A DNA stretch of 64,000 bases from Rhizomicrobium sp. Lineage in GTDB: Bacteria > Pseudomonadota > Alphaproteobacteria > Micropepsales > Micropepsaceae. Made by a program: the position numbers and the translations under genes. The stretch lies in contig DATAYG010000079.1 in NCBI GenBank assembly GCA_036272695.1, positions 11,214 through 75,213 of the forward strand, given 5' to 3'. Below, in pieces: positions 2,878 through 54,211 of the stretch. Each line of letters opens with the position of its first letter. The first letter of the stretch is position 1. Under the pieces are notes generated by a model, which searched no databases, had not been told where the DNA came from, and saw only the letters and a list, made by a program, of their open reading frames with translations.

Positions 2878-4374
2878 CTATTTCTCGTAATTATCGGCGA
2901 TCAGGCGATCTAACACCCGCACGCCCCATCCCGTGCCCCAGGACGGTGCCAGTTCCTTGTGCTCGCCATCCTGCCAGGCGACGCCGGCGATATCGAGATG
3001 CGCCCAGGGGGTCTTGTTCACGAAGCGCTGGAGGAATTGCGCGGCGGTGATCGAGCCCGCGTTCGGACCGCCGATATTCTTCATGTCGGCGATCTTCGAC
3101 TTGAGCAGTTTGTCATAGCCATCGCCGAGCGGAAGACGCCAGGCGGGCTCGCCGACCGCCCGCGCCGCGTTGGTAATCTGCTCTGCGAGCGCGTCGTCGT
3201 TGGAAAATAGTCCGGCATGCTCGTGCCCAAGCGCCACCAGGATGGCGCCGGTGAGCGTAGCGAGATCGATCACGCATTTCGGTTTGAGCTGCGATTGCGC
3301 GTACCAGAGCGCGTCGGCAAGGACCAGACGCCCCTCCGCATCCGTATTCAGGACCTCTATCGTCTGCCCCGACATCGACTTCACGACGTCGTCGGGACGC
3401 TGCGCTTTGCCGTCGGGCATATTCTCGACGAGCCCGACCACGCCCACCACATTCGCGCGCGCCTTGCGCGCCGCAAGCGCCTGGATTGTCCCGGCGACGG
3501 CCGCGGCACCACCCATATCGCCCTTCATGCCCATCATCCCGGCGCCGCTCTTGAGCGACAGACCGCCGGAATCGAAGCAGACGCCCTTGCCGACGAGCGC
3601 GACTGGCGCCGCCTCGGCCTTCTTCGCGCCGTTCCACTGCATCACGACGAGCTTGCTCTCGCGCTCGCTGCCCTGCCCGACTCCCAGCAGCGCCCCCATG
3701 CCGAGCTTTTTCATTTCCGCTTCGCCGAGGACACGCACCTCTACGCCAAGCTTCGACAGCGACTGCACCCGCTTCGCGAATTCCTCGGGCGAGAGCACAT
3801 TGGGGGGCTCGTTGACGAGATCGCGCGCCAAGAACACTCCTTCCGCGACCGCATCCATCGCGGCGAAGGTGCGCTTCGCGGCCTGCGGATCGGACGTCGC
3901 AACCGCAATTTCCTTCAGCGTCGGTTCGTGTTCGTCCCGGTCTTTCGTGCGGTACCGGTTGAAGGTGTAGCAGCGCAATCGCGCGCCCATAGCGAGATGC
4001 GATGCCAGCATCACCCCCTCGGCAGGAGCTCCCTCCGGAGCGTCGATTGCAAAGGTGAGCGCCGTTTCCCCGTTCGCGAACAGTTTTCCCACCACGCCGG
4101 CCGCGACCCGCTCGGCCGCCAGCGCGTCGAATTTTTCCGGCTTGCCGAGACCGGCAAGCAGCAGCCGCGACGCCTTGAGCCCGGCCGGCGCAACGACCTC
4201 CAGAATCTGTCCGGGCTTTCCCGAAAACCGGCTGACAGCCATGGCCCTCTTGATTGCACCGCCCGACAGACGGTCGGCTTCCGACGCCTGACCCGAAAGC
4301 TTGCCGCCTTCAGGTACCCCCAACGCGATGGCTCCGGTGCCGGTCAGTGACGGCGGCACGAACTTTATTTGCAT
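2878..4374 (-). CDS. pepA: Leucyl aminopeptidase (M17)
   Basis: LVGKGVCFDSGGLSLK, MKGDMGGAA and NTDAEGRLVLAD motifs. Confidence 0.97.
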   Translation of the reverse strand: MQIKFVPPSLTGTGAIALGVPEGGKLSGQASEADRLSGGAIKRAMAVSRFSGKPGQILEVVAPAGLKASRLLLAGLGKPEKFDALAAERVAAGVVGKLFANGETALTFAIDAPEGAPAEGVMLASHLAMGARLRCYTFNRYRTKDRDEHEPTLKEIAVATSDPQAAKRTFAAMDAVAEGVFLARDLVNEPPNVLSPEEFAKRVQSLSKLGVEVRVLGEAEMKKLGMGALLGVGQGSERESKLVVMQWNGAKKAEAAPVALVGKGVCFDSGGLSLKSGAGMMGMKGDMGGAAAVAGTIQALAARKARANVVGVVGLVENMPDGKAQRPDDVVKSMSGQTIEVLNTDAEGRLVLADALWYAQSQLKPKCVIDLATLTGAILVALGHEHAGLFSNDDALAEQITNAARAVGEPAWRLPLGDGYDKLLKSKIADMKNIGGPNAGSITAAQFLQRFVNKTPWAHLDIAGVAWQDGEHKELAPSWGTGWGVRVLDRLIADNYEK

Positions 4375-4570
4375 GAACGACCTCGCGAGATGTTCTAAGG
4401 TTGGGGATTGCGGGTGAATGGCGGGACGGTGCTAGTTTAGAGCCAATTGCAAACCGGGCGAAAGAGCGGGTTTTCCGCCTGCACCCGGGCTGCGGTGGAC
4501 ATGGATATCCTCCGGACCCTGCCGCAGCTTCAGCGAAAGCAGGCAGGCAGCCTCGCCCAAAGGTCAGTTT

Positions 4571-5797
4571 ATGCCGCATCTCTCCCGTTATGTGCTGCGT
4601 CAGCTGGTCGGCCCGGTCGCCCTTTTCATTTTTCTTCTGACCTGCGTGATCTGGCTTTCACAATCGCTGCGATTGCTCGACCTCGTGATCAACCGCGGCC
4701 AGTCGGCGCCCACATTCTTCTATCTCACACTGCTGATGCTGCCGAGCCTTCTGGTCGTAATCCTGCCCATCGCCTATTTTGCCGGGACGCTTTATGGCCT
4801 TCACAAGCTCAACGCCGACAGCGAGCTGACGGTCATGTCGGCCGCAGGCTTCAGCCGCAGCCAGCTCCTGACCCCGATTTTGATCGCAGCCACCGTGGTG
4901 ATGATGGCGACCTTGTTTTGCAGCCTTTATCTCATGCCGTTCTGCCAGCGCCTGATGAAGGACAAGGAGATCGATATCCGTGCCGATATCGGCGCCGCCA
5001 TTCTCAATGAAGGGCAGTTCAACACGCCCGCGCAGGGACTCACGGTTTTCATGCGCGAGCTGTCGCCCGATGGACATCTCCGCGGCGTGCTCGTGCATGA
5101 CGAGCGCGATAGACTGCATCCTACAACTTACCTCGCCGAGAGCGGCGCTCTGGCTCAGACCCCCGCCGGCGCCAGGCTTATCATGCTCGATGGCACGATC
5201 GAGCAAAGCACGCCTGAAGGACCCTGCCGCAATGCTGCGCCGCCACGCCCGCACGCCCCTCACAGCCTTCACGGGAACCTTCCGAAATGCCCGCCCGGGT
5301 TGCGTCACGCGCCGCCGTCGCTCTCGGTGCTGAAATTTCAACGCTACGTGTTTGATCTCGATCAGTTCGGCGGACGCCAGCAGGATGCCGAGCTGCGCAC
5401 CAGCGAGCGCTATCTGGGCGAATTGCTATGGCCCAGTTCGACAAAGCCCCTGAAGCCGGAAGCCCGCCGCGTCTATTTCGCGGAAGCCAATAACCGTCTG
5501 GCGGCGCCGCTATATTGCCCCGCCTTCGCGCTGATCGCCTTCGCGGCCGTGACGCTCGGCCGGCGCGGCCGCGGCGTCTATGCCTTGCGGCTGGTCTCGG
5601 CATCGATGCTCGCGGCGGGATTGCGTATCGCCGGCTACGGCGTACTGGGGCTCGGCGTGCGATCGCCTATATTGTGCGCGCTGTTCTATCTTATTCCGTT
5701 GCTCGCCGGAGCCGCGGCTTTGGCCGAGATCGCCGGCTATGATCTCGCCTGGATTCGCGCCCGTCTTCGTCCCCGGATTCTCGAGCCCGTTACATGA
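4571..5797 (+). CDS. lptF: LPS export ABC transporter permease LptF
   Basis: YVLRQL...WLSQSLRLLDL...DSELTVMSAAGFS; divergent from pepA and first of lptF-lptG-lptD. Confidence 0.9.
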   Translation: MPHLSRYVLRQLVGPVALFIFLLTCVIWLSQSLRLLDLVINRGQSAPTFFYLTLLMLPSLLVVILPIAYFAGTLYGLHKLNADSELTVMSAAGFSRSQLLTPILIAATVVMMATLFCSLYLMPFCQRLMKDKEIDIRADIGAAILNEGQFNTPAQGLTVFMRELSPDGHLRGVLVHDERDRLHPTTYLAESGALAQTPAGARLIMLDGTIEQSTPEGPCRNAAPPRPHAPHSLHGNLPKCPPGLRHAPPSLSVLKFQRYVFDLDQFGGRQQDAELRTSERYLGELLWPSSTKPLKPEARRVYFAEANNRLAAPLYCPAFALIAFAAVTLGRRGRGVYALRLVSASMLAAGLRIAGYGVLGLGVRSPILCALFYLIPLLAGAAALAEIAGYDLAWIRARLRPRILEPVT

Positions 5798-6885
5798 GCT
5801 GGTCCTGGACTCTCTATCAGTATCTGGCGCGCCAGTTCCTGGTGGCGGTCGGCATCATGTTCGCCGGCTTTGCCTTCCTGTCCTTTTCCATCGATCTCGT
5901 CGATCTTCTCGACCGGACGGGCGACAGACATGTCCCCACGATTGCTGTCGTCGCCATGGCTTTGCTGCAGCTGCCTGACCTGGCGCTGAAGCTATTGCCG
6001 TTCGCCGTTCTTCTCGGGGGCATCTTTGCTTTCGTTCGACTCTCACGCAGCCATGAGCTGCAGGCGATCCGCGCCGCCGGCGTCTCCGCCTGGAATCTTC
6101 TCGTTGCTCCGCTCAGTGTGGCGCTTGCTTTAGGCGTAGTCGCGGTCGTGGCATTTACGCCGCTCGCGTCGGGCCTTCTTGTGCAGTATTCGGAAATGGA
6201 AGCCAGGTTGATCCGGGGACAGGCTTCGCAGCTCGCCATTTCGTCGAACGGTCTGTGGCTGCGGCAGGGCGACGCAAAGGCGCAGTCGGTGATCCACGCC
6301 TTGCGCGTCTCCGATCAGGGCGTGAAGCTCGAAGATGTAACGATCTTCCTTTACGGCGCCGCCGACAATTTCCTGGGCCGCATCGATGCGCGCTCGGCTG
6401 CGCTCGGCAAAGGCAGCTGGACGCTTGACGATGCCTGGATCAGCGGCACGACCGCGCAGCTCCACCACTACCCGACCTATCATCTTCCGACCAGGCTTAC
6501 GCCCACGCGCATTCAGGAAAGTTTCGCGGCGCCGGATACGCTGTCGTTCTGGGCATTGCCGGGATTCATCGAAACCGCGCGCCAGGCCGGCTTCTCTGCG
6601 ACGCGCTATCTGCTCTACTATGATTCGCTGCTGATGCTGCCGGCGATGTTCGCCGCCATGGTCCTGATCGCCGCAAGTTTCTCGCTGCGGCTTGCCCGGC
6701 TTGGCGGCCTTGGGCGGATCATTATCCTTGGTACGCTTGCGGGTTTTGGTGTCTATTTTCTCAGCGCGCTAACGCGGGCGTTGGGTGAATCCGGAATACT
6801 GCCTGTTCCGCTTGCCGCGGCAGCACCGGCCAGCGTTGCAATCCTTCTGGGAATGACGCTCCTGTTCCACCAGGAGGATGGCTGA
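5794..6885 (+). CDS. lptG: LPS export ABC transporter permease LptG
   Basis: LYQYLARQF...RLSRSHELQAIRAAGVSAW...LWLRQG...LLFHQEDG; ATGA overlap with lptF. Confidence 0.92.
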   Translation: MSWSWTLYQYLARQFLVAVGIMFAGFAFLSFSIDLVDLLDRTGDRHVPTIAVVAMALLQLPDLALKLLPFAVLLGGIFAFVRLSRSHELQAIRAAGVSAWNLLVAPLSVALALGVVAVVAFTPLASGLLVQYSEMEARLIRGQASQLAISSNGLWLRQGDAKAQSVIHALRVSDQGVKLEDVTIFLYGAADNFLGRIDARSAALGKGSWTLDDAWISGTTAQLHHYPTYHLPTRLTPTRIQESFAAPDTLSFWALPGFIETARQAGFSATRYLLYYDSLLMLPAMFAAMVLIAASFSLRLARLGGLGRIIILGTLAGFGVYFLSALTRALGESGILPVPLAAAAPASVAILLGMTLLFHQEDG

Positions 6886-21524: not shown

Positions 21525-21708
21525 ATCGTTTGCGGTTTGGTTCGGCGATTCGTGTATTTGTTCCTGTTCCGCGGATGTGCAGCGCCTGTTGTCGCGCGTA
21601 ACAGATTTCATCGCAAGTGATTGACGGACAAGGCCGATCGCGCGTCCGGCGGCGCTTTGTTCCGCGAACCCGCGAAAACCCCCTGTATTCGCCTGATAAA
21701 ACAGGAAA

Positions 21709-42176: not shown

Positions 42177-46200
<4,024 letters not shown>

Positions 46201-46286
46201 GCCCGTCGCGGATCACAGAGCGGCCGAATCGAGTTTAATGCCCCTGGCCCCGCTCACGGAAGCAGCAAAACCTCGCGAACTCCTCT

Positions 46287-47195
46287 TTACCCCCTCAGGC
46301 TCTGAACGATAGGCTCGCGTTTCGCCACCTTATAAGTCGAAGCGATGATGGGCTCGGCCCAGAAGCTCGCAAACCATTTGCGGAGCCAGGGGTCGTTGCC
46401 GGTGAAGGCCGTCGCGTCGGCGTTAACGTTCACTTTCGACTGCACCTCCGCGAGCGTGAGCCCCTGTTTCGTCGGCGGTGCAACCTGCACCTCCACATTC
46501 CTCGAGGCCGAAATAATCCTGTCGATCTGCGCGCGATCTTTCTGCGGCATACCGTGACCGGGAACCAGAATGCGGAACGGCATGCGCGCAGCTTTTCGAG
46601 CACGTGGATCCATTCGGCGGGATAGCTTTCGCAGCCATAGGGAAACGGCAGAATCACCGTTTCGCCAGCTATGACGATCTGCTGTTTCGCCAGCCAGACA
46701 ACCGCATCGCCGTCCGTGTTTGCCCGTCCCAGGAACAGTATCTGCACGGGGCGAACGGAATCATCGATGACAAGCTTGTCGGTAAAGCTTTCCTTCGTCG
46801 TCAGTGTAACTGCCCGTCGAGGTCGCGCGCCCATTGCCGCAGATCGAACAGCAACGCCGCATAGTGGAGCTGCAAGTCCGGGTCGTCGATCTTCGCGGCC
46901 TGTTCCCAGATGCGATCCTCGTATCGCCGCAGAAGCTTCTGATATTTGTCATTCGCCGCCAGATCGGCATGGCCCGGCGTGTTCATCGTAACAGGATCGG
47001 CGAGACGCCGTTGCGTTGCCACCGTCGAAATGGTCCGCGCATTCGGCCAGGCCTTGAGAATCTCCGACAGCCCCTGCGGCTTGTCCCCATGCCATTGACT
47101 GATGATAATGGTCTTGACCGGCTTCGTACTTAGCGAATGTACGATTTCGACGATGCGCACGCCGGCACCTTTGGATCCGGCGGCATCTACAAGCT
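46287..47195 (-). pseudogene. Metallo-beta-lactamase-fold hydrolase pseudogene
   Basis: Three consecutive frames give IISQWHGDKPQG (degenerate HxHxDH), ANTDGDAVVW and LVPGHG; frameshifts near 46815 and 46586; N-terminus missing. Confidence 0.75.
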
Positions 47196-47543
47196 TTTCG
47201 CCGTTCCCCTCGCCCTTCTTTTCCCGGCCGTTATCCTATCCAGAACCGCGCGGTAACCCTGATGCGGCTCCTGCCTCAGGAACCGCGCAACGCGGGTGAT
47301 CGTCGCCAGGCTGGCGCCGGTGCGGTCATGGATTTCGCGATAAGACAGCGCACCCTCATTGAGCAGGCGCGCGATCTTCCACCGCTCGGCAAGGGCCGAA
47401 ATCTCCGCCGGCGTGCACAGATCGAGCAGGAACAGCCTGCATTCTTCCGGCGTCTTCAGCTGAAAGAACGCTTCGCAAAGCGCGTCGAGGCCGGAGGACT
47501 GACCGGCATTGCGGGCCGCAAGACCGCGGACGCTGCTCTTCAT
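47187..47543 (-). CDS. YerC/YecD (TrpR-like) repressor, candidate his regulator
   Basis: EECRLFLLDLCTPAEISALAERWKIARLL...SYREIHDRTGASLATITRVARFL; divergent from hisG. Confidence 0.88.
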   Translation of the reverse strand: MKSSVRGLAARNAGQSSGLDALCEAFFQLKTPEECRLFLLDLCTPAEISALAERWKIARLLNEGALSYREIHDRTGASLATITRVARFLRQEPHQGYRAVLDRITAGKRRARGTAKSL

Positions 47544-47556
47544 GGTTCCCACGCCC

Positions 47557-47601
47557 TTGCCTTTCCCGGTTCTTGTGCTATTGTTCTAGCATGATAGAAC
47601 A
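47557..47601 (+). promoter_or_regulatory. Predicted his promoter overlapped by a TrpR-type operator
   Basis: TTGCCT (47557-62) - 16 bp - TGn-TATTGT (47579-84); palindrome TGTTCTA-N6-TAGAACA at 47582-47601 covering the -10 end and the ATG at 47591. Confidence 0.65.
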
Positions 47602-48520
47602 TGCAATCGATAACCGAACCAGAAATGCGCCGCGCCTCGCGGGCGACCGCGTCCGCATGGCGGTGCAGAGAAGCGGCCGCCTCGCCGAAGACAGTGTCGC
47701 GTTGCTCCGCAATTGCGGACTGCACGTCGACCGCAGCAAGGACCAGCTCTTCTGCCGGATCAAGGAGCTGCCGATCGATGTCCTGCGTGTGCGCGACGAC
47801 GACATACCGGGCTTTGTCAGCAGCGGCATCTGCGATCTCGGCATCGTCGGCGAAAACGTATTCGCCGAGCTGAAAGAAGTCGGAAACGGCAGCTTCGGCG
47901 CGGACATACTCGAGCGGCTGGGGTTCTCGCTGTGCCGGCTTGCGATTGCCGTACCGGAAGACGCCGCCGTCAACGCCATCTCCGATCTCGACGGAGCAAC
48001 CATCGCAACGTCATATCCCCATCTGCTGAAACGATTTCTACGTGCGAATGGCATATCGGCCAAGACCCTGCTGATGACGGGTTCGGTCGAGGTCGCCCCC
48101 CGCCTCAGGATCGCCGACGCCATCTGCGATATTGTTTCCTCGGGCGCGACGCTCGCGGCCAATGGATTGCGGGAACTGGCGGTCGTGTTGCGCAGCGAAG
48201 CCCTGCTGATTCGTTCCGCCCAGCGATTGTCGCCGGGGAAGGAGGAAACGGCATATCGCCTTCTCGAGCGCATGCGCGGCGCACTGCTGGCGGAGGACAG
48301 CAAATACATCATGCTCAACGCGCCGCGCGCCGCGGTCGACGAGATCGCTCGGCTTCTGCCGGGCTGCGACGCACCTACAATCATGGATCTGAACAGGGAG
48401 AACATGGTCGCCATACACGCCGTCTGCAAGGAAGCCGTATTCTGGGAAACCATGGAACAAATCCGCGCCGCCGGCGGCAAGGCAATCCTGGTGCTGCCGA
48501 TCGAAAAGATGATGGCGTGA
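47591..48520 (+). CDS. hisG: ATP phosphoribosyltransferase, long form
   Basis: AVQRSGRL, RDDDIPGFV, DLGIVGEN, IATSYP, GSVEVAP...ADAICDIVSSGATL, C-terminal regulatory domain ending VLPIEKM. Confidence 0.95.
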   Translation: MIEHAIDNRTRNAPRLAGDRVRMAVQRSGRLAEDSVALLRNCGLHVDRSKDQLFCRIKELPIDVLRVRDDDIPGFVSSGICDLGIVGENVFAELKEVGNGSFGADILERLGFSLCRLAIAVPEDAAVNAISDLDGATIATSYPHLLKRFLRANGISAKTLLMTGSVEVAPRLRIADAICDIVSSGATLAANGLRELAVVLRSEALLIRSAQRLSPGKEETAYRLLERMRGALLAEDSKYIMLNAPRAAVDEIARLLPGCDAPTIMDLNRENMVAIHAVCKEAVFWETMEQIRAAGGKAILVLPIEKMMA

Positions 48521-48536: not shown

Positions 48537-49835
48537 ATGAGAACGGTTGTCTGGAATGAGATTTCGGATGCGGAACGCCGGCTGGTCCTGGGCCGGCCGG
48601 CCCGCAGCTACGATGCTGATCTGCGTGAGACGGTCGCCGCGATACTGCGCGATGTGAAAGTCCGTGGCGACGAGGCCGTAAAAGATTTTGCAAGATCCCT
48701 CGACGACTTCGCGGATTCCGATTTCCGGGTTCAGAGTTCCGAAATCATGGAATCGCCCGAGGGTATTGACCGGCAGCTGCGCGGAGCCATGGAACGCGCC
48801 ATTGCCAACCTCTCGGCCTTTCACGCGGCACAACTGCCCCGGACCATCCGCGTGGAAACCATGCCTGGCATTACCTGTGAATTGCATTGGCACCCTGTGG
48901 AGCGAGTCGGCTTCTATGTTCCTGGCGGAACGGCGCCGCTGTTTTCCTCACTTCTGATGCAGGCCATTCCGGCACGAATCGCCGGCTGCACGGACTCCAT
49001 TCTTTGCACGCCGCCGCAGCGCGACGGAAGAGTACATCCCGCCATACTGGCAGCCGCGAAGCTCTGCGGCATCGAGAACATCTATGCCATTGGCGGCGCA
49101 CAGGCCATCGCGGCCATGGCCTACGGGACGGCGACGATTCCCAAAGTCGACAAGATATCCGGGCCCGGCAATGCGTTCGTGACATCGGCGAAACAGATGG
49201 TGGCGCAGGATCCGGCAGGCGCCGCCATCGATCTGCCGGCGGGTCCTTCGGAAGTCATGGTCGTTGCGGAAGTTTCTGCCCGGCCCGATTGGATCGCGGC
49301 GGATCTTCTCGCCCAGGCGGAACATGGATTGGATGCACACGCATTGTTTGTCACCACGAGCGCAACCCTCGCCGCTTCGGTTCAAGCGGATATTCATGCG
49401 CAGACCGCCGGGCTGCGCCGCCGCGCCATCGTGGAGACGAGCCTCAACAGCGGCTCCATCATCGTCGTTCCAAATATGCAAACGGCGATCGGAATCGTGA
49501 ACCGCTACGCGCCCGAGCATCTCATTTTGCACGATGACGACGCCGATAGCTGGCTGCCGGAAATCCGGCATGCCGGTTCGATATTTCTCGGCCGCTATTC
49601 GCCGGAAACGGCGGGCGATTATGCCAGCGGAGCGAATCACGTTCTGCCGACCGGCGGGCTCGCGCGGGCCTATGGTGGCATCACAGTGTTCAGCTTCCTG
49701 AAAAGCATGACCGTACAGAGGCTGCAACCCGAAGGCCTGCAAAACCTGGGGCCAGCTCTGATCGCGATGGCCGAGGCCGAGGGATTGCAGGCGCATGCCA
49801 ATGCCGTGTCGATCCGACTGAGGGCGGCGGCATGA
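48537..49835 (+). CDS. hisD: Histidinol dehydrogenase
   Basis: GFYVPGGTAPLFS, GGAQAIAAMAYG, GPGNAFV, PAGPSEV, QAEHG, APEHL, GDYASGANHVLPT. Confidence 0.96.
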   Translation: MRTVVWNEISDAERRLVLGRPARSYDADLRETVAAILRDVKVRGDEAVKDFARSLDDFADSDFRVQSSEIMESPEGIDRQLRGAMERAIANLSAFHAAQLPRTIRVETMPGITCELHWHPVERVGFYVPGGTAPLFSSLLMQAIPARIAGCTDSILCTPPQRDGRVHPAILAAAKLCGIENIYAIGGAQAIAAMAYGTATIPKVDKISGPGNAFVTSAKQMVAQDPAGAAIDLPAGPSEVMVVAEVSARPDWIAADLLAQAEHGLDAHALFVTTSATLAASVQADIHAQTAGLRRRAIVETSLNSGSIIVVPNMQTAIGIVNRYAPEHLILHDDDADSWLPEIRHAGSIFLGRYSPETAGDYASGANHVLPTGGLARAYGGITVFSFLKSMTVQRLQPEGLQNLGPALIAMAEAEGLQAHANAVSIRLRAAA

Positions 49836-51490
49836 ACTGGCTGGAAGAACTGATACGTCCCGACTTGCGCTCATTGGCCCCCTATCGCTCCGCGCGCAGC
49901 GAAGGCGATGCACTGCCGATAAGCATCGACGCCAACGAATTTCCCTGGCCGCCCTTCGGCTCCGCAGCCGCACATTGGAAGCCCAACCGATATCCGGAAG
50001 CGCAACCCCGAGAACTCGTCCGGCGCCTGACCGAAATCTGGAATGCCGGTCCCGATTCCATCTTGCTGACACGCGGCAGCGATGAAGGAATCGACATGCT
50101 GTTGCGACTGTTTTGTCGGGCCGGCCGCGATCAGGTCCTTATCTGTCCGCCCACTTACGGGATGTACAGTGTAGCGGCCGGCATACAGGGCGCAGATGTT
50201 CTCGAAATCCCGTTGACGCACGATTGGCAGCTTGATGTTGCCGTCATCATCGAGGCCTGCACGCCGGCAACAAAGCTGATCTTCATTCCGTCGCCCAATG
50301 CTCCGATGGGGCATTTGATGGCGCGCGCGGACATACTTGCCCTCTGCATGGCACGCGCCGGCAAGAGCCTCGTCGTCATCGACGAGGCCTATGTCGAATT
50401 CACGCTCACGCCCGAGGGATTGCTGCCGGACCTCGCGCGTTGCTCGAATCTCGTCGTGCTTCGGACCCTCTCTAAGGCGCACGCGCTCGCGGGTGAGCGC
50501 ATCGGCGCAGTGATCGCAGCACCTGGCCTGATCAATAATCTACAGAAGATTCTCGCGCCCTACCCGCTTGCACGGAGCAGCATCGGCGTGGCGCTTGATG
50601 CTCTCGGCCCGAACGGATTCATACAAAACGCCGAGCGCCGGCGGCTGCTGATTTCCGAGCGGGAGCGGATGGCGGAGCTTCTTCCGCAGTCGCCATGGAT
50701 CAAAAGCATATTCCCCAGCGTCGCAAATTTTGTCCTGGTGCGGACAGCAAGCTCCGAATCTCTTGTCCGGCATCTCCGGCAATTCGGCATTCTGGCGCGC
50801 GCCCGAAATCGCGATATCCCCGATACGGTGCGCCTGTCGGTCGGAACGCCGGAAGAGAACGACGTCGTGCTGCAGGCGCTTGACATCGGGATCGGCCAAA
50901 CGGCGCGTCAGCCACAGAGGCTCTTCTCCATCAGGCGCAGGACGAAGGAAACGGCCATTGATGTCACGGTCAATCTGGACGGGCGCAGCTTTCTCAGGAT
51001 CAACAGCGGGATCGGCTTTTTCGACCACATGCTGTCGCAGCTTGCGATGCATGGCGGTTTCGGGCTGGAGCTGCATTGCAACGGCGACCTCGAAATCGAC
51101 CAGCATCATACAATCGAAGACAGCGCGCTTGCGCTGGGCGAGGCGCTAAAGAATGCGCTCGGCACCAAGACCGGTATCGCACGCTTCGGCTTTAATGCGC
51201 CGCTGGATGAGGCGATGGCACAGGTCACAGTCGATCTGTGCGGGCGGCCTTATCTTGTATTTGCCGGTGTTCTACCGGCCGAGAACATCGGTCAGATGAG
51301 CTCGGAAATGGTGCCCCATTTCTTCCGGTCGCTGGCAACCGCGCTTGGCGCAACCATTCACATCAGCGTTCAGGGCGCGAATACCCATCACATGGCCGAA
51401 GCAATCTTCAAGGCGACGGGACGCGCCCTGCGCCAGGCGTTCCGGCACGAGGGCCGCTCCGGCGTCCCGTCGACCAAGGGCGTGTTATGA
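49832..51490 (+). CDS. HisC-HisB fusion: histidinol-phosphate aminotransferase + imidazoleglycerol-phosphate dehydratase
   Basis: N-part: NRYP, RGSDEGID, VIDEAYVEF, RTLSKAHALAGERIG. C-part: RRTKETAI, FFDHML, DQHHTIED, NTHHMAEAIFKA, PSTKGVL. One 552-aa ORF with no internal stop. Confidence 0.9.
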   Translation: MNWLEELIRPDLRSLAPYRSARSEGDALPISIDANEFPWPPFGSAAAHWKPNRYPEAQPRELVRRLTEIWNAGPDSILLTRGSDEGIDMLLRLFCRAGRDQVLICPPTYGMYSVAAGIQGADVLEIPLTHDWQLDVAVIIEACTPATKLIFIPSPNAPMGHLMARADILALCMARAGKSLVVIDEAYVEFTLTPEGLLPDLARCSNLVVLRTLSKAHALAGERIGAVIAAPGLINNLQKILAPYPLARSSIGVALDALGPNGFIQNAERRRLLISERERMAELLPQSPWIKSIFPSVANFVLVRTASSESLVRHLRQFGILARARNRDIPDTVRLSVGTPEENDVVLQALDIGIGQTARQPQRLFSIRRRTKETAIDVTVNLDGRSFLRINSGIGFFDHMLSQLAMHGGFGLELHCNGDLEIDQHHTIEDSALALGEALKNALGTKTGIARFGFNAPLDEAMAQVTVDLCGRPYLVFAGVLPAENIGQMSSEMVPHFFRSLATALGATIHISVQGANTHHMAEAIFKATGRALRQAFRHEGRSGVPSTKGVL

Positions 51491-52080
51491 TCGCCCTTGT
51501 AGATAGCGGCGTCGCCAATCTCGCGTCCGTCCTCGCAGCCCTCTCCCGTCTTGGCCATAGCGCCGAAGTAACGGCCAATCCGGGATTTGTACGACGTGCC
51601 GACCGGATCATCCTGCCCGGCGTCGGCGCCGCCGCCGCGGCCATGGAGCAGCTGCGCAAAAGGGGTCTCGTCGATGCTCTGCGCGTGGTGAACCAGCCGG
51701 TTCTCGGTATCTGTCTCGGCATGCAGCTCCTTTTCGCCCGGTCGGACGAAGGAGAAGGCGTTGATTGTCTTGGCGTCATCCCGGGAAGGATAAAGCCGCT
51801 GAAAGCCCTGCGGGCCTATCCGATCCCGCATATGGGCTGGAACCGTATTCGCGTCGACGGGGCCGGGCATCCATTGCTGCGCGGCATTGCCGACGGCACC
51901 TTCATGTATTTCGCGCACAGTTTTGCCGCGCCGAAAGGTCGCCACGCTTTGGCGTTCGCCGAGCATGGCGAACAGTTCCCCGCTGTGGTCGCTCATGGAA
52001 ATTATATCGGCTGTCAGTTCCATCCGGAACGTTCAGGAGCGCCGGGGCTCAAACTGATCGAAAATTTCCTTGGCCTGTGA
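51487..52080 (+). CDS. hisH: IGP synthase glutaminase subunit
   Basis: ILPGVG, GICLGMQ, PHMGWN, YFAHSF, QFHPERS. Start ATG 51487. Confidence 0.95.
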   Translation: MIALVDSGVANLASVLAALSRLGHSAEVTANPGFVRRADRIILPGVGAAAAAMEQLRKRGLVDALRVVNQPVLGICLGMQLLFARSDEGEGVDCLGVIPGRIKPLKALRAYPIPHMGWNRIRVDGAGHPLLRGIADGTFMYFAHSFAAPKGRHALAFAEHGEQFPAVVAHGNYIGCQFHPERSGAPGLKLIENFLGL

Positions 52081-52081
52081 T

Positions 52082-52825
52082 ATGGACATTATTCCGGCCA
52101 TCGATCTCAGGAATGGCCAGTGCGTGCGCCTGACCCGGGGAGACTTCTCGCAAATCGAAGTCTACGAGAGAGATCCGATCCTGCAGGCGCTGCGCTTCGC
52201 ACAAGCGGGCGCGCAATGGCTTCATATCGTCGATCTCGACGGTGCGAGGGAAGGCGGCAGCCGGCAGCGCGATATAATAGAGCGCATGGCACAAAGCGTT
52301 CCGCTGAAATTGCAGGTCGGCGGCGGCATACGCGATGAAATCGATTTGAAGGCATTGCTCGACCGCGGCATTGAACGCGTCGTGATCGGCAGCCTCGCCG
52401 TTCAGGCGCCGGCGCGCGTCAGGGATTGGCTCCGGCGTTTCGGATCCGCCCGCATCGCTGTGGCTCTCGATGTGCGCCCGGATGAAAGGGGCGAACCGCG
52501 GGTTCTTACCCAGGCCTGGCAAAAAGAAACCGGTACCAGCCTGTGGGCGCTTCTGGACATTTATGAGAATGACGGTCTCAAGACGGTTCTCTGCACCGAT
52601 GTCGGGCGCGACGGAATGTTGGCCGGACCAAACCTTGAACTGTATCGGAGAATTCACAGCCTGAACCCCAAACTTGAACTTCTTGCGTCAGGAGGCGTGA
52701 GGAATGTCGATGATTTGAACGACCTGGCGCAACTCGGCATAAGCGGCGCAATCATCGGCAAAGCCATCTACGCGGGGCATGTCGACCTCGCCGGCGCGAT
52801 AATGCAGGTCAAGCATGCTTGCTAG
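52082..52825 (+). CDS. hisA: ProFAR isomerase
   Basis: [49 protein letters not shown]. Confidence 0.95.
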
Positions 52826-53582
52826 GCGCATCATCCCCTGCCTCGACGTCAGAGACGGCGTGGTCGTCAAGGGCGTCAAATTCCGCAATCATGAGGTCGT
52901 GGGCGACATCGTCGATCTTGCATGGCGCTATCGGGACGAAGGCGCCGACGAACTTGTGCTTTACGATATCACCGCGAGCAGCGACGGGCGCAGTGTGGAT
53001 CGAAGCTGGATCGCGCGTATCGCAGCGGTCCTCGACATACCCTTTTGCGTCGCGGGCGGCATTCGCAGCATCGAAGATGCGCGCGGAATACTGGCCCGGG
53101 GCGCCGACAAAATCTCGATCAACTCGCCGGCGCTCGAAAATCCCGATCTGATCGACAAATTGGCAGATGAGTTCGGCAGCCAGTGCGTAGTGGTCGGAAT
53201 CGACAGCCGCCGGATCGGCAGCGAGTATCGCGTCCATCAATATACCGGCGATGTCGCGCGCACGCGGACGACGCCGCGCAACACGCTGGCATGGGCAGCG
53301 GAAGCCGAGAGGCGCGGCGCAGGCGAGATCGTGCTGAACTGCATGGACAAGGACGGCACGCGCGACGGATATGACATCGTACAGCTACGCGCCCTACGCG
53401 ATACCATCTCGATTCCACTCATCGCCTCCGGCGGTGCGGGAAGAAGGGAACATTTCCTGGAGGCATTCCGCGAGGGGCGGGTCGATGGAGCTCTGGCGGC
53501 CGGCATTTTTCACCGGCGCGTCGTTACGATCGAAGACGTGAAGCATTATCTCGCGCAACAGGAAATAGTCGTGCGGATATGA
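52815..53582 (+). CDS. hisF: IGP synthase cyclase subunit
   Basis: [52 protein letters not shown]. Confidence 0.96.
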
Positions 53583-54211
53583 CCTCCATTACTTGCGCAG
53601 CCGAGGTGGATGCCGTCGATTGGGCGAAAGGCGGCGGGCTGGTTCCCGCCATTGTGCAGGACGTTCCGTCGCTGCGCGTTCTCATGCTCGGATATATGAA
53701 TCGGGCCGCCCTGCAGCAGACGCTGGAAACGAGACACGTCACCTTCTACAGCCGCGGCAAACACCGGCTGTGGGAAAAAGGCGAAACCTCCGGCAATACC
53801 CTGGTCTGCCGGGAAATCAGGCTGGACTGCGATCGCGACACGTTGCTGGTGTTGGCCGAACCGAACGGGCCCACTTGTCATCTGGGTACGCCGACCTGCT
53901 TTGGCGATCACGCGTCACCGGGACTTGCCATATTGGCCGATCTGGCGGCCACGATCCGGCAGCGACGTCGCGACGCGCCTGCCGACAGTTACACGGCCAC
54001 GCTCTTTGCATCCGGTATGCGGCGGATCGCGCAGAAGGTCGGCGAAGAAGGTGTCGAAGTGGCCCTGGCGGCCGGAAACGCGGAAGAACTCGCTGCGGAA
54101 TCCGCCGATCTGCTTTATCATCTGCTGGTCCTGCTCGAAGCGGGTGGCGTCAGCCTGCAGGATGTGATGACTGTCCTTCGCGATCGGGCGCAGACCAGGG
54201 GACCGTCCTGA
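53579..54211 (+). CDS. hisIE: Bifunctional PR-AMP cyclohydrolase / PR-ATP pyrophosphatase
   Basis: [36 protein letters not shown]; SYTATL...[10 protein letters not shown]...ADLLYHL. Confidence 0.95.

Follow-up and report, generated by a model that had tools for sequence, protein, structure and literature searches.

HisR and its predicted operator on the hisG start codon between divergent hisR and histidine biosynthesis genes of Rhizomicrobium sp.

The window analysed here is a stretch of 64,000 nucleotides of contig DATAYG010000079.1 from Rhizomicrobium sp. (Micropepsaceae). It carries a complete histidine biosynthesis operon on the plus strand, hisG-D-(CB)-H-A-F-IE, which is divergent from a minus-strand gene that, judged by its sequence, is hisR, encoding the histidine repressor of the TrpR family. 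The gap between hisR and hisG is only 47 bp, and this gap region contains a 20-bp palindrome. We consider the palindrome, with a probability of roughly 0.8, to be the single HisR operator for the divergent his operon, through which the operon would be repressed by histidine-loaded HisR. The system is an ordinary member of the HisR system described by Ashniev, Rodionov et al. (2022, BMC Genomics, PMC9413887), and its local twist is that the operator lies on the start codon of hisG.

The predicted HisR operator (47582-47601, without strand) reads TGTTCTAGCATGATAGAACA. It is self-complementary in nine of ten symmetric pairs, the arms TGTTCTA and TAGAACA being perfect and the inner CATG also symmetric. 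The pattern TGTTCTA-N6-TAGAACA has a single occurrence in the window and was found in 0 of 100 shuffles, and 20-mers with nine of ten complementary pairs number 9 in all in the window, the majority of them GC-rich. A previous sequence-only reading of this DNA had pointed to the palindrome and to its likeness to the symmetric E. coli trp operator; the sequence and its coordinates were as claimed, and recomputation gave the same count of 13 identical positions out of 20. That reading had proposed a comparison with the RegPrecise HisR motifs, and the site also fits the published proteobacterial HisR motif (PMC9413887): it agrees with the motif as printed at 10 of the 14 specified positions and carries a symmetric A-to-T change at position 4. 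The operator has its dyad centre at the ATG at 47591, which is in frame with hisG. On the other side, the operator occupies the nucleotides 39-58 upstream of the hisR ATG, with 38 bp in between.

The relatives of the window's protein were surveyed in 160 loci, half of them (80) from species genomes and the other 80 from metagenomes. hisR and a long-form hisG were neighbours in 139 of these loci; in 133 hisR immediately preceded long-form hisG in the same direction, in 6 the two were divergent, and in 21 there was no hisG in reach. Linkage of hisR to trp genes was never seen among the surveyed loci, nearly all of which had genes of histidine biosynthesis or amino-acid uptake beside hisR. A palindromic weight matrix was built de novo from the upstream regions of hisR in 156 loci, with the window left out. 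Its consensus was TGTAtTArCrYGyTAaTACA, and 148 of the 156 upstream regions had a site scoring above the 99th percentile of coding-region controls. The best matrix sites in loci L014, L035 and L068/L071 were letter-identical to the published HisR sites of Asticcacaulis, Oceanicaulis and Brevundimonas, respectively (PMC9413887). With this independent matrix the window operator scored 21.9 bits and was the top match in the 64 kb, the runner-up having 10.7 bits. The runner-up (TGTATTCGCCTGATAAAACA, 21684-21703) was considered as a second HisR operator and rejected as a probable chance match, since it is located after gmk, where two convergent genes end.

The predicted regulator gene (47187-47543, minus strand) encodes a YerC/YecD-type protein of 118 amino acids from the ATG at 47543, which is the form on record; an alternative GTG start at 47552 would extend the open reading frame (ORF) to 47187-47552. 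The protein has the Trp_repressor fold (PF01371, 84.9 bits with a cut-off of 27, E = 4e-24) and scores above the cut-off of the YerC/YecD subfamily model TIGR02531 (72.1 against 42.2 bits) and below that of the TrpR equivalog model TIGR01321 (35 against 67.25 bits). There are no trp genes beside hisR in the window. The best matches in the PDB are the YerC-type structures 3G1C, 3FRW and 3KOR (E = 4e-14 to 8e-12), of which 3G1C is the HisR structure used in PMC9413887. The window's HisR, aligned with E. coli TrpR, has the same DNA-contact residues R69, A80, T81, T83 and R84, which explains why its operator resembles the trp operator. In the same alignment the Firmicutes HisR proteins deviate at the positions matching TrpR R69, I79 and T83. 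In the tree the window's HisR falls within a 99/92-supported clade that is nested among the co-directional alphaproteobacterial HisR proteins. The HisR proteins of the Micropepsaceae clade additionally have a Lys/Arg-rich C-terminal tail of ~12-15 residues (AGKRRARGTAKSL in the window, 47187-47230), which is missing from most other alphaproteobacterial HisR proteins and may provide extra DNA contacts.

To describe the local layout we used a clade set of 9 distinct Micropepsaceae/Rhizomicrobium-type loci, with HisR identities of 66-87 %. All nine are divergent, with hisR inverted relative to hisG, and the gap measures 47 bp without exception. None of the nine departs from CCCTTG and TGCTAyTGTTCTAnCATGATAnnACA, and the central ATG of the operator is in every case in frame with hisG. 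The palindrome was thus present in 9/9 orthologous divergent loci, which, together with the homologous sites before hisR in the 148 relatives mentioned above, answers in the affirmative the question of conservation that the sequence-only reading had raised. Since the divergent clade nests among co-directional alphaproteobacterial HisR, the layout looks as if hisR had been inverted from an ancestral hisR-hisG operon.

Several other arrangements were observed in the survey. In L012, L016, L027 and L034 (~2900-5900 in each), which come from low-GC host-associated lineages (metagenome-assembled genomes of Babeliales and Rickettsiales-like alphaproteobacteria), hisR has no his neighbours and is the first gene of an ATP-binding cassette (ABC) amino-acid transporter operon consisting of SBP_bac_3 or ABC_sub_bind, permease and ATPase. 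The operator is found just upstream, with a TATCATGATA centre as in the window's operator, and in L034 its central ATG is in frame with hisR. The position of hisR at the head of such transporter operons ties the family to histidine supply. In many co-directional loci of Sphingomonadales and Caulobacterales (L025, L028, L037, L059, L066, L084 and others) the operator ends 0-10 nt before the hisR ATG, so that, counted from the first base of the operator, the hisR start codon is at +20 to +32. The right half-site decays in Sphingomonadales to TTGGAACA, which may double as a ribosome-binding site. Overlap of the operator with a translation start seems to be a general habit of alphaproteobacterial HisR sites. 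In the divergent locus L003 (2130-3000) hisG and hisR are ~870 bp apart, apparently through an inserted gene, and two operator-like sites are found near hisG, TGTAATAGCGCGATATTACA at 2219 and TGTAATATCGTGATATTACA at 2327.

We propose that, when histidine is plentiful, a histidine-loaded HisR dimer would bind the operator, which would extend from approximately -9 to +11 in the hisG promoter, so that the start codon, the transcription start and the 3' part of the -10 element would all lie under it. The bound dimer would occlude RNA polymerase. When histidine falls, HisR would leave the operator and the operon would be transcribed; transcription would start on the A of the central ATG, and the right half of the operator would then also encode HisG residues 1-4. 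The family of the protein, its linkage to his genes, the place and conservation of the operator and the reading frames are shown by the data, and histidine as co-repressor is adopted from the literature; that the operon is repressed in this organism, where its transcription starts and that hisR is autoregulated we infer. The sequence-only reading had suggested histidine-responsive repression by a YerC/TrpR-like protein in place of attenuation, and HisR family membership, the comparative data and the literature all point the same way. Its remark that there is no space for a His-rich attenuator leader also agrees with the gap of just 47 bp: there is no His-codon leader ORF or attenuator before hisG, the gap being filled by promoter and operator, and no terminator-like site was found there.

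The predicted hisG promoter (plus strand) consists of a -35 element TTGCCT at 47557-47562, within the invariant CCCTTG and 16 nt upstream of the -10, and an extended -10, TGcTATTGT, at 47576-47584, the corresponding TGCTAyTGT being invariant in the nine clade loci. The last three bases of the extended -10 are the first three of the operator. As the sequence-only reading had stated, this -10 overlaps the palindrome and its spacing would place +1 on the A of the ATG (47591), the seventh base past the -10 hexamer; in all nine loci TAyTGT ends 6 nt before the ATG. The promoter assignment relies on conservation in these loci and not on match strength, since the match is below the threshold of the scan. 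A TGTGCTA at 47574 was considered as a tandem TrpR-style half-site 8 bp upstream, and was dropped as its key G is an A in L081 and L162 and TGCTA is better explained as part of the extended -10.

We regard a leaderless hisG mRNA, with +1 on the A of the central ATG, as plausible and as the most economical reading, and on balance it is the one we favour: the ATG is conserved and in frame, no Shine-Dalgarno-like sequence (GGAG/AGGA-like) precedes it in the nine clade loci, the -10 is suitably positioned, and two of the loci have no other start. Leaderless messages are common in Alphaproteobacteria, 375 AUG-initiated leaderless mRNAs having been reported in Caulobacter (PMC4117421) and 171 leaderless transcripts, all starting with AUG, in S. 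meliloti (PMC3616915). From this ATG, HisG would have a clade-specific N-terminal extension (codons 2-18, 47594-47644, plus strand; 18 codons counting the ATG), and the TIGR00070 match starts 20 residues past the ATG. Codons 2-4 are set by the right half of the operator, codon 6 (ATC) is invariant and the remainder is a variable linker. Public gene calls in 6 related loci likewise give a 309-amino-acid HisG and a 47-bp gap. Two other arguments about the start were abandoned. The TTG at 47573, from which the ORF list starts hisG, falls within the promoter and lacks conservation, and the idea that the invariant ATA of codon 2 is a rare codon kept by the operator was dropped as ATA makes up 17 % of the Ile codons in the operon.

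Several observations weigh against a leaderless start. The promoter hexamers are weak, with 8 of 12 consensus positions (the scan threshold being 9), and a simple sigma-70 and terminator scan of 47350-47800 made no call. In composition the 12-codon linker looks non-coding (GC2 of 0.67 compared to 0.44 in the gene body), GC content at the three codon positions (GC1, GC2, GC3) being about equal and the sequence variable; its open frame 0 is only weakly significant, the 18 frame-sequences of the other two frames together having 5 stops. L002, a more distant divergent locus, provides hisG with a separate Shine-Dalgarno sequence and an ATG 36 nt downstream, and a better promoter, TTGACA-N17-TATCAT, would start transcription past the central ATG; the operator-embedded hisG start is therefore not general. 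A search of sequencing runs for the locus sequence returned three soil-metagenome DNA runs and no RNA run.

These observations lend some weight to the strongest alternative, in which the HisR/operator system is the same and hisG is not leaderless, transcription or translation starting elsewhere. The -10 could be at the operator centre (TAGCAT, with +1 near 47599), or the promoter inside hisR, and translation could begin at a different and possibly non-canonical codon nearer the DRVR core, so that the 'extension' would be an untranslated leader. Besides the weak promoter, the freely varying linker and the example of L002, this view is favoured by L001, L004 and L165, which have a further ATG in frame, 3-10 codons ahead of the core. 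On the other hand, no other in-frame ATG, GTG or TTG is found upstream of the core in L081, L167 or the window, and the alternative starts all lack a Shine-Dalgarno-like motif before them. Between the ATG and the DRVR(I/M)A core the spacing varies by whole codons only, being 18 codons in eight loci and 19 in L001, with the single indel in frame. Furthermore, the -35 region that a centre-located -10 would need is not conserved, whereas CCCTTG-N-TGCTAyTGT is invariant. We thus consider a start elsewhere unlikely, but it is the alternative that survives best.

The 38 bp between the operator and the hisR ATG are filled by the hisG promoter, so that a hisR promoter could be placed only in overlap with the operator or on its far side. 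For this reason hisR is probably autoregulated through the same operator, a suggestion made with about the same confidence as that of the leaderless start; a site upstream of hisR was present in about half of the published genomes (PMC9413887). The sole conserved candidates for hisR promoter elements are a TyGAT -35-like element and the TAGAAC opposite the operator's left half. With low confidence we assign a hisR promoter to the minus strand at 47583-47610, consisting of a -35 TCGATT (47605-47610), a 16-nt spacer and a -10 TAGAAC (47583-47588), which would have the operator inside it. In the nine loci TAGAAC does not vary, and neither does GAT, which is complementary to codon 6 of hisG (ATC). 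The candidate -10 has no usual final T, and the promoter scan calls nothing.

Taken together, the elements could form an unusually compact bidirectional switch, which we put forward only tentatively and would not ourselves rate as the likelier outcome. One HisR dimer site would serve as operator, as the 3' part of the hisG -10, as the transcription start and as the first four codons of a leaderless hisG, and on the opposite strand it would contain the hisR -10 (TAGAAC). The two promoters would be mutually exclusive and both would be shut by one repressor, an arrangement that the inversion of hisR would have produced. If this were true, the HisG N-terminus, MI(A/E)(Q/H), would be dictated by the operator half-site.

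It is improbable that the regulator binds this operator with another ligand, such as tryptophan, histidinol or a pathway intermediate, or that it acts as an activator. What speaks for such a role is that histidine as the co-repressor would here be extrapolated from the Firmicutes protein of Ruminococcus gnavus, the sole biochemical case, with no proteobacterial HisR among those whose histidine response is known; this also counts against the histidine-loaded repression that we propose. In addition, the window's clade is the closest to TrpR and keeps its DNA-contact residues. On the opposite side stand the linkage of hisR to histidine biosynthesis or amino-acid uptake in nearly all loci and never to trp, the TrpR equivalog score below the cut-off, and the replacement of the Trp-contacting residues throughout the HisR family (PMC9413887). 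An operator over the -10, +1 and start codon is, moreover, in a repressor position. Finally, it is very improbable that the palindrome arose by chance or has a different function or binding factor (an RNA hairpin, another regulator), with hisR nearby by coincidence: nothing specific favours this beyond the AT-rich sequence expected in promoters of GC-rich genomes, and it is contradicted by the shuffles, by the score from the independent matrix, by the homologous sites in several orders and by the co-variation of the site with a protein that keeps the DNA-reading residues of TrpR.

Downstream of the operator, the putatively HisR-controlled operon is formed by hisG (47591-48520), a long-form ATP phosphoribosyltransferase of 309 amino acids with HisG and HisG_C domains, hisD (48537-49835), histidinol dehydrogenase (PF00815, E = 1.9e-160), and a hisC::hisB fusion (49832-51490) which combines histidinol-phosphate aminotransferase with imidazoleglycerol-phosphate (IGP) dehydratase (PF00155 and PF00475; TIGR01141, 299 bits). 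These are followed by hisH (51487-52080), the glutamine amidotransferase subunit with a GATase domain, in ATGA overlap with the hisCB stop codon, hisA (52070-52825; PF00977, E = 1.8e-74), hisF (52815-53582; PF00977, E = 4.7e-72) and hisIE (53579-54211), with PRA-CH and PRA-PH domains; all are on the plus strand. In the published supplement the operons of Asticcacaulis and Brevundimonas are written hisR-hisGD(CB)FAH(IE) (PMC9413887, supplement 3), so the fusion is at least known from annotation. The gene beyond hisR is recN. The ~1 kb stretch between recN and the hisR stop (46200-47186) carries minus-strand ORFs at 46430-46834 and 46801-47160, neither of which had a match in Pfam or NCBIfam. 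As recN directly follows hisR, without an intervening stretch, in the related loci L167 and L168, 46200-47186 looks like a lineage-specific insertion.

The sequence-only reading rated the novelty of the system too highly: the HisR system was described in 2022, and that reading had itself cited RegPrecise HisR. What is new here is modest, namely a lineage outside the 2022 study, the divergent arrangement and an operator centred on the start codon. The HisR regulon is thereby extended to another alphaproteobacterial soil family, Micropepsaceae/Rhizomicrobium, and the link between hisR and long-form hisG in 139 of the 160 sampled loci, compared to 11 published genomes, indicates that HisR is widespread in Alphaproteobacteria. 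HisR was predicted in 2022, with biochemical validation in one Firmicutes species only. The clade layout offers a compact test case of a dual constraint on one DNA stretch, as the operator is on the start codon, the N-terminus would be operator-dictated and a leaderless message is probable; a simple reporter design suggests itself as well. The finding raises no new question, and a specialist in amino-acid regulons would expect it.

Among known systems the closest is the proteobacterial HisR regulon (PMC9413887; RegPrecise HisR). The YerC-type TrpR homologue was named HisR in that study, in which HisR regulons were reconstructed in 395 Firmicutes and 97 other genomes, and the Ruminococcus gnavus HisR bound its site in vitro only with 0.75 mM histidine present. 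The window's system shares with the proteobacterial regulon the YerC/TrpR fold, the 20-bp operator type TGTAnTA-N6-TAnTACA and, as target under the same kind of local control, the his operon with long-form hisG and the (CB) fusion. It differs in that hisR is inverted and one operator lies between the divergent genes, its centre being the hisG start codon. Micropepsaceae/Rhizomicrobium were not covered in the published study and leaderless transcripts are not mentioned in it. The Firmicutes HisR proteins (B. subtilis YerC, R. gnavus HisR) belong to the same family, but their operator consensus, cacTTTA-N6-TAAAgtg, is unlike the window's operator.

E. coli TrpR has the same fold and DNA-contact residues as the window's HisR, and its operator likewise overlaps the -10 and the start site; it has an amino-acid end product as co-repressor and is autoregulated. 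The window's HisR is, however, no TrpR equivalog, is his- and not trp-linked, and differs in its ligand-pocket residues (PMC9413887). The E. coli trp operon has an attenuator besides, for which there is no room at the window's hisG. Enterobacterial his attenuation by a His-rich leader peptide concerns the same pathway and a gene order likewise beginning hisG-D, whereas control in the window would be by a DNA-binding repressor and the 47-bp gap is too short for a leader and terminator. Leaderless repressor-controlled transcripts with the start codon at +1, beside or inside operator DNA, are known from lambda cI transcribed from PRM and from Tn1721 tetR. Those are regulator genes, while the predicted leaderless gene in the window is the first biosynthetic gene, with its ATG at the dyad centre of the operator.

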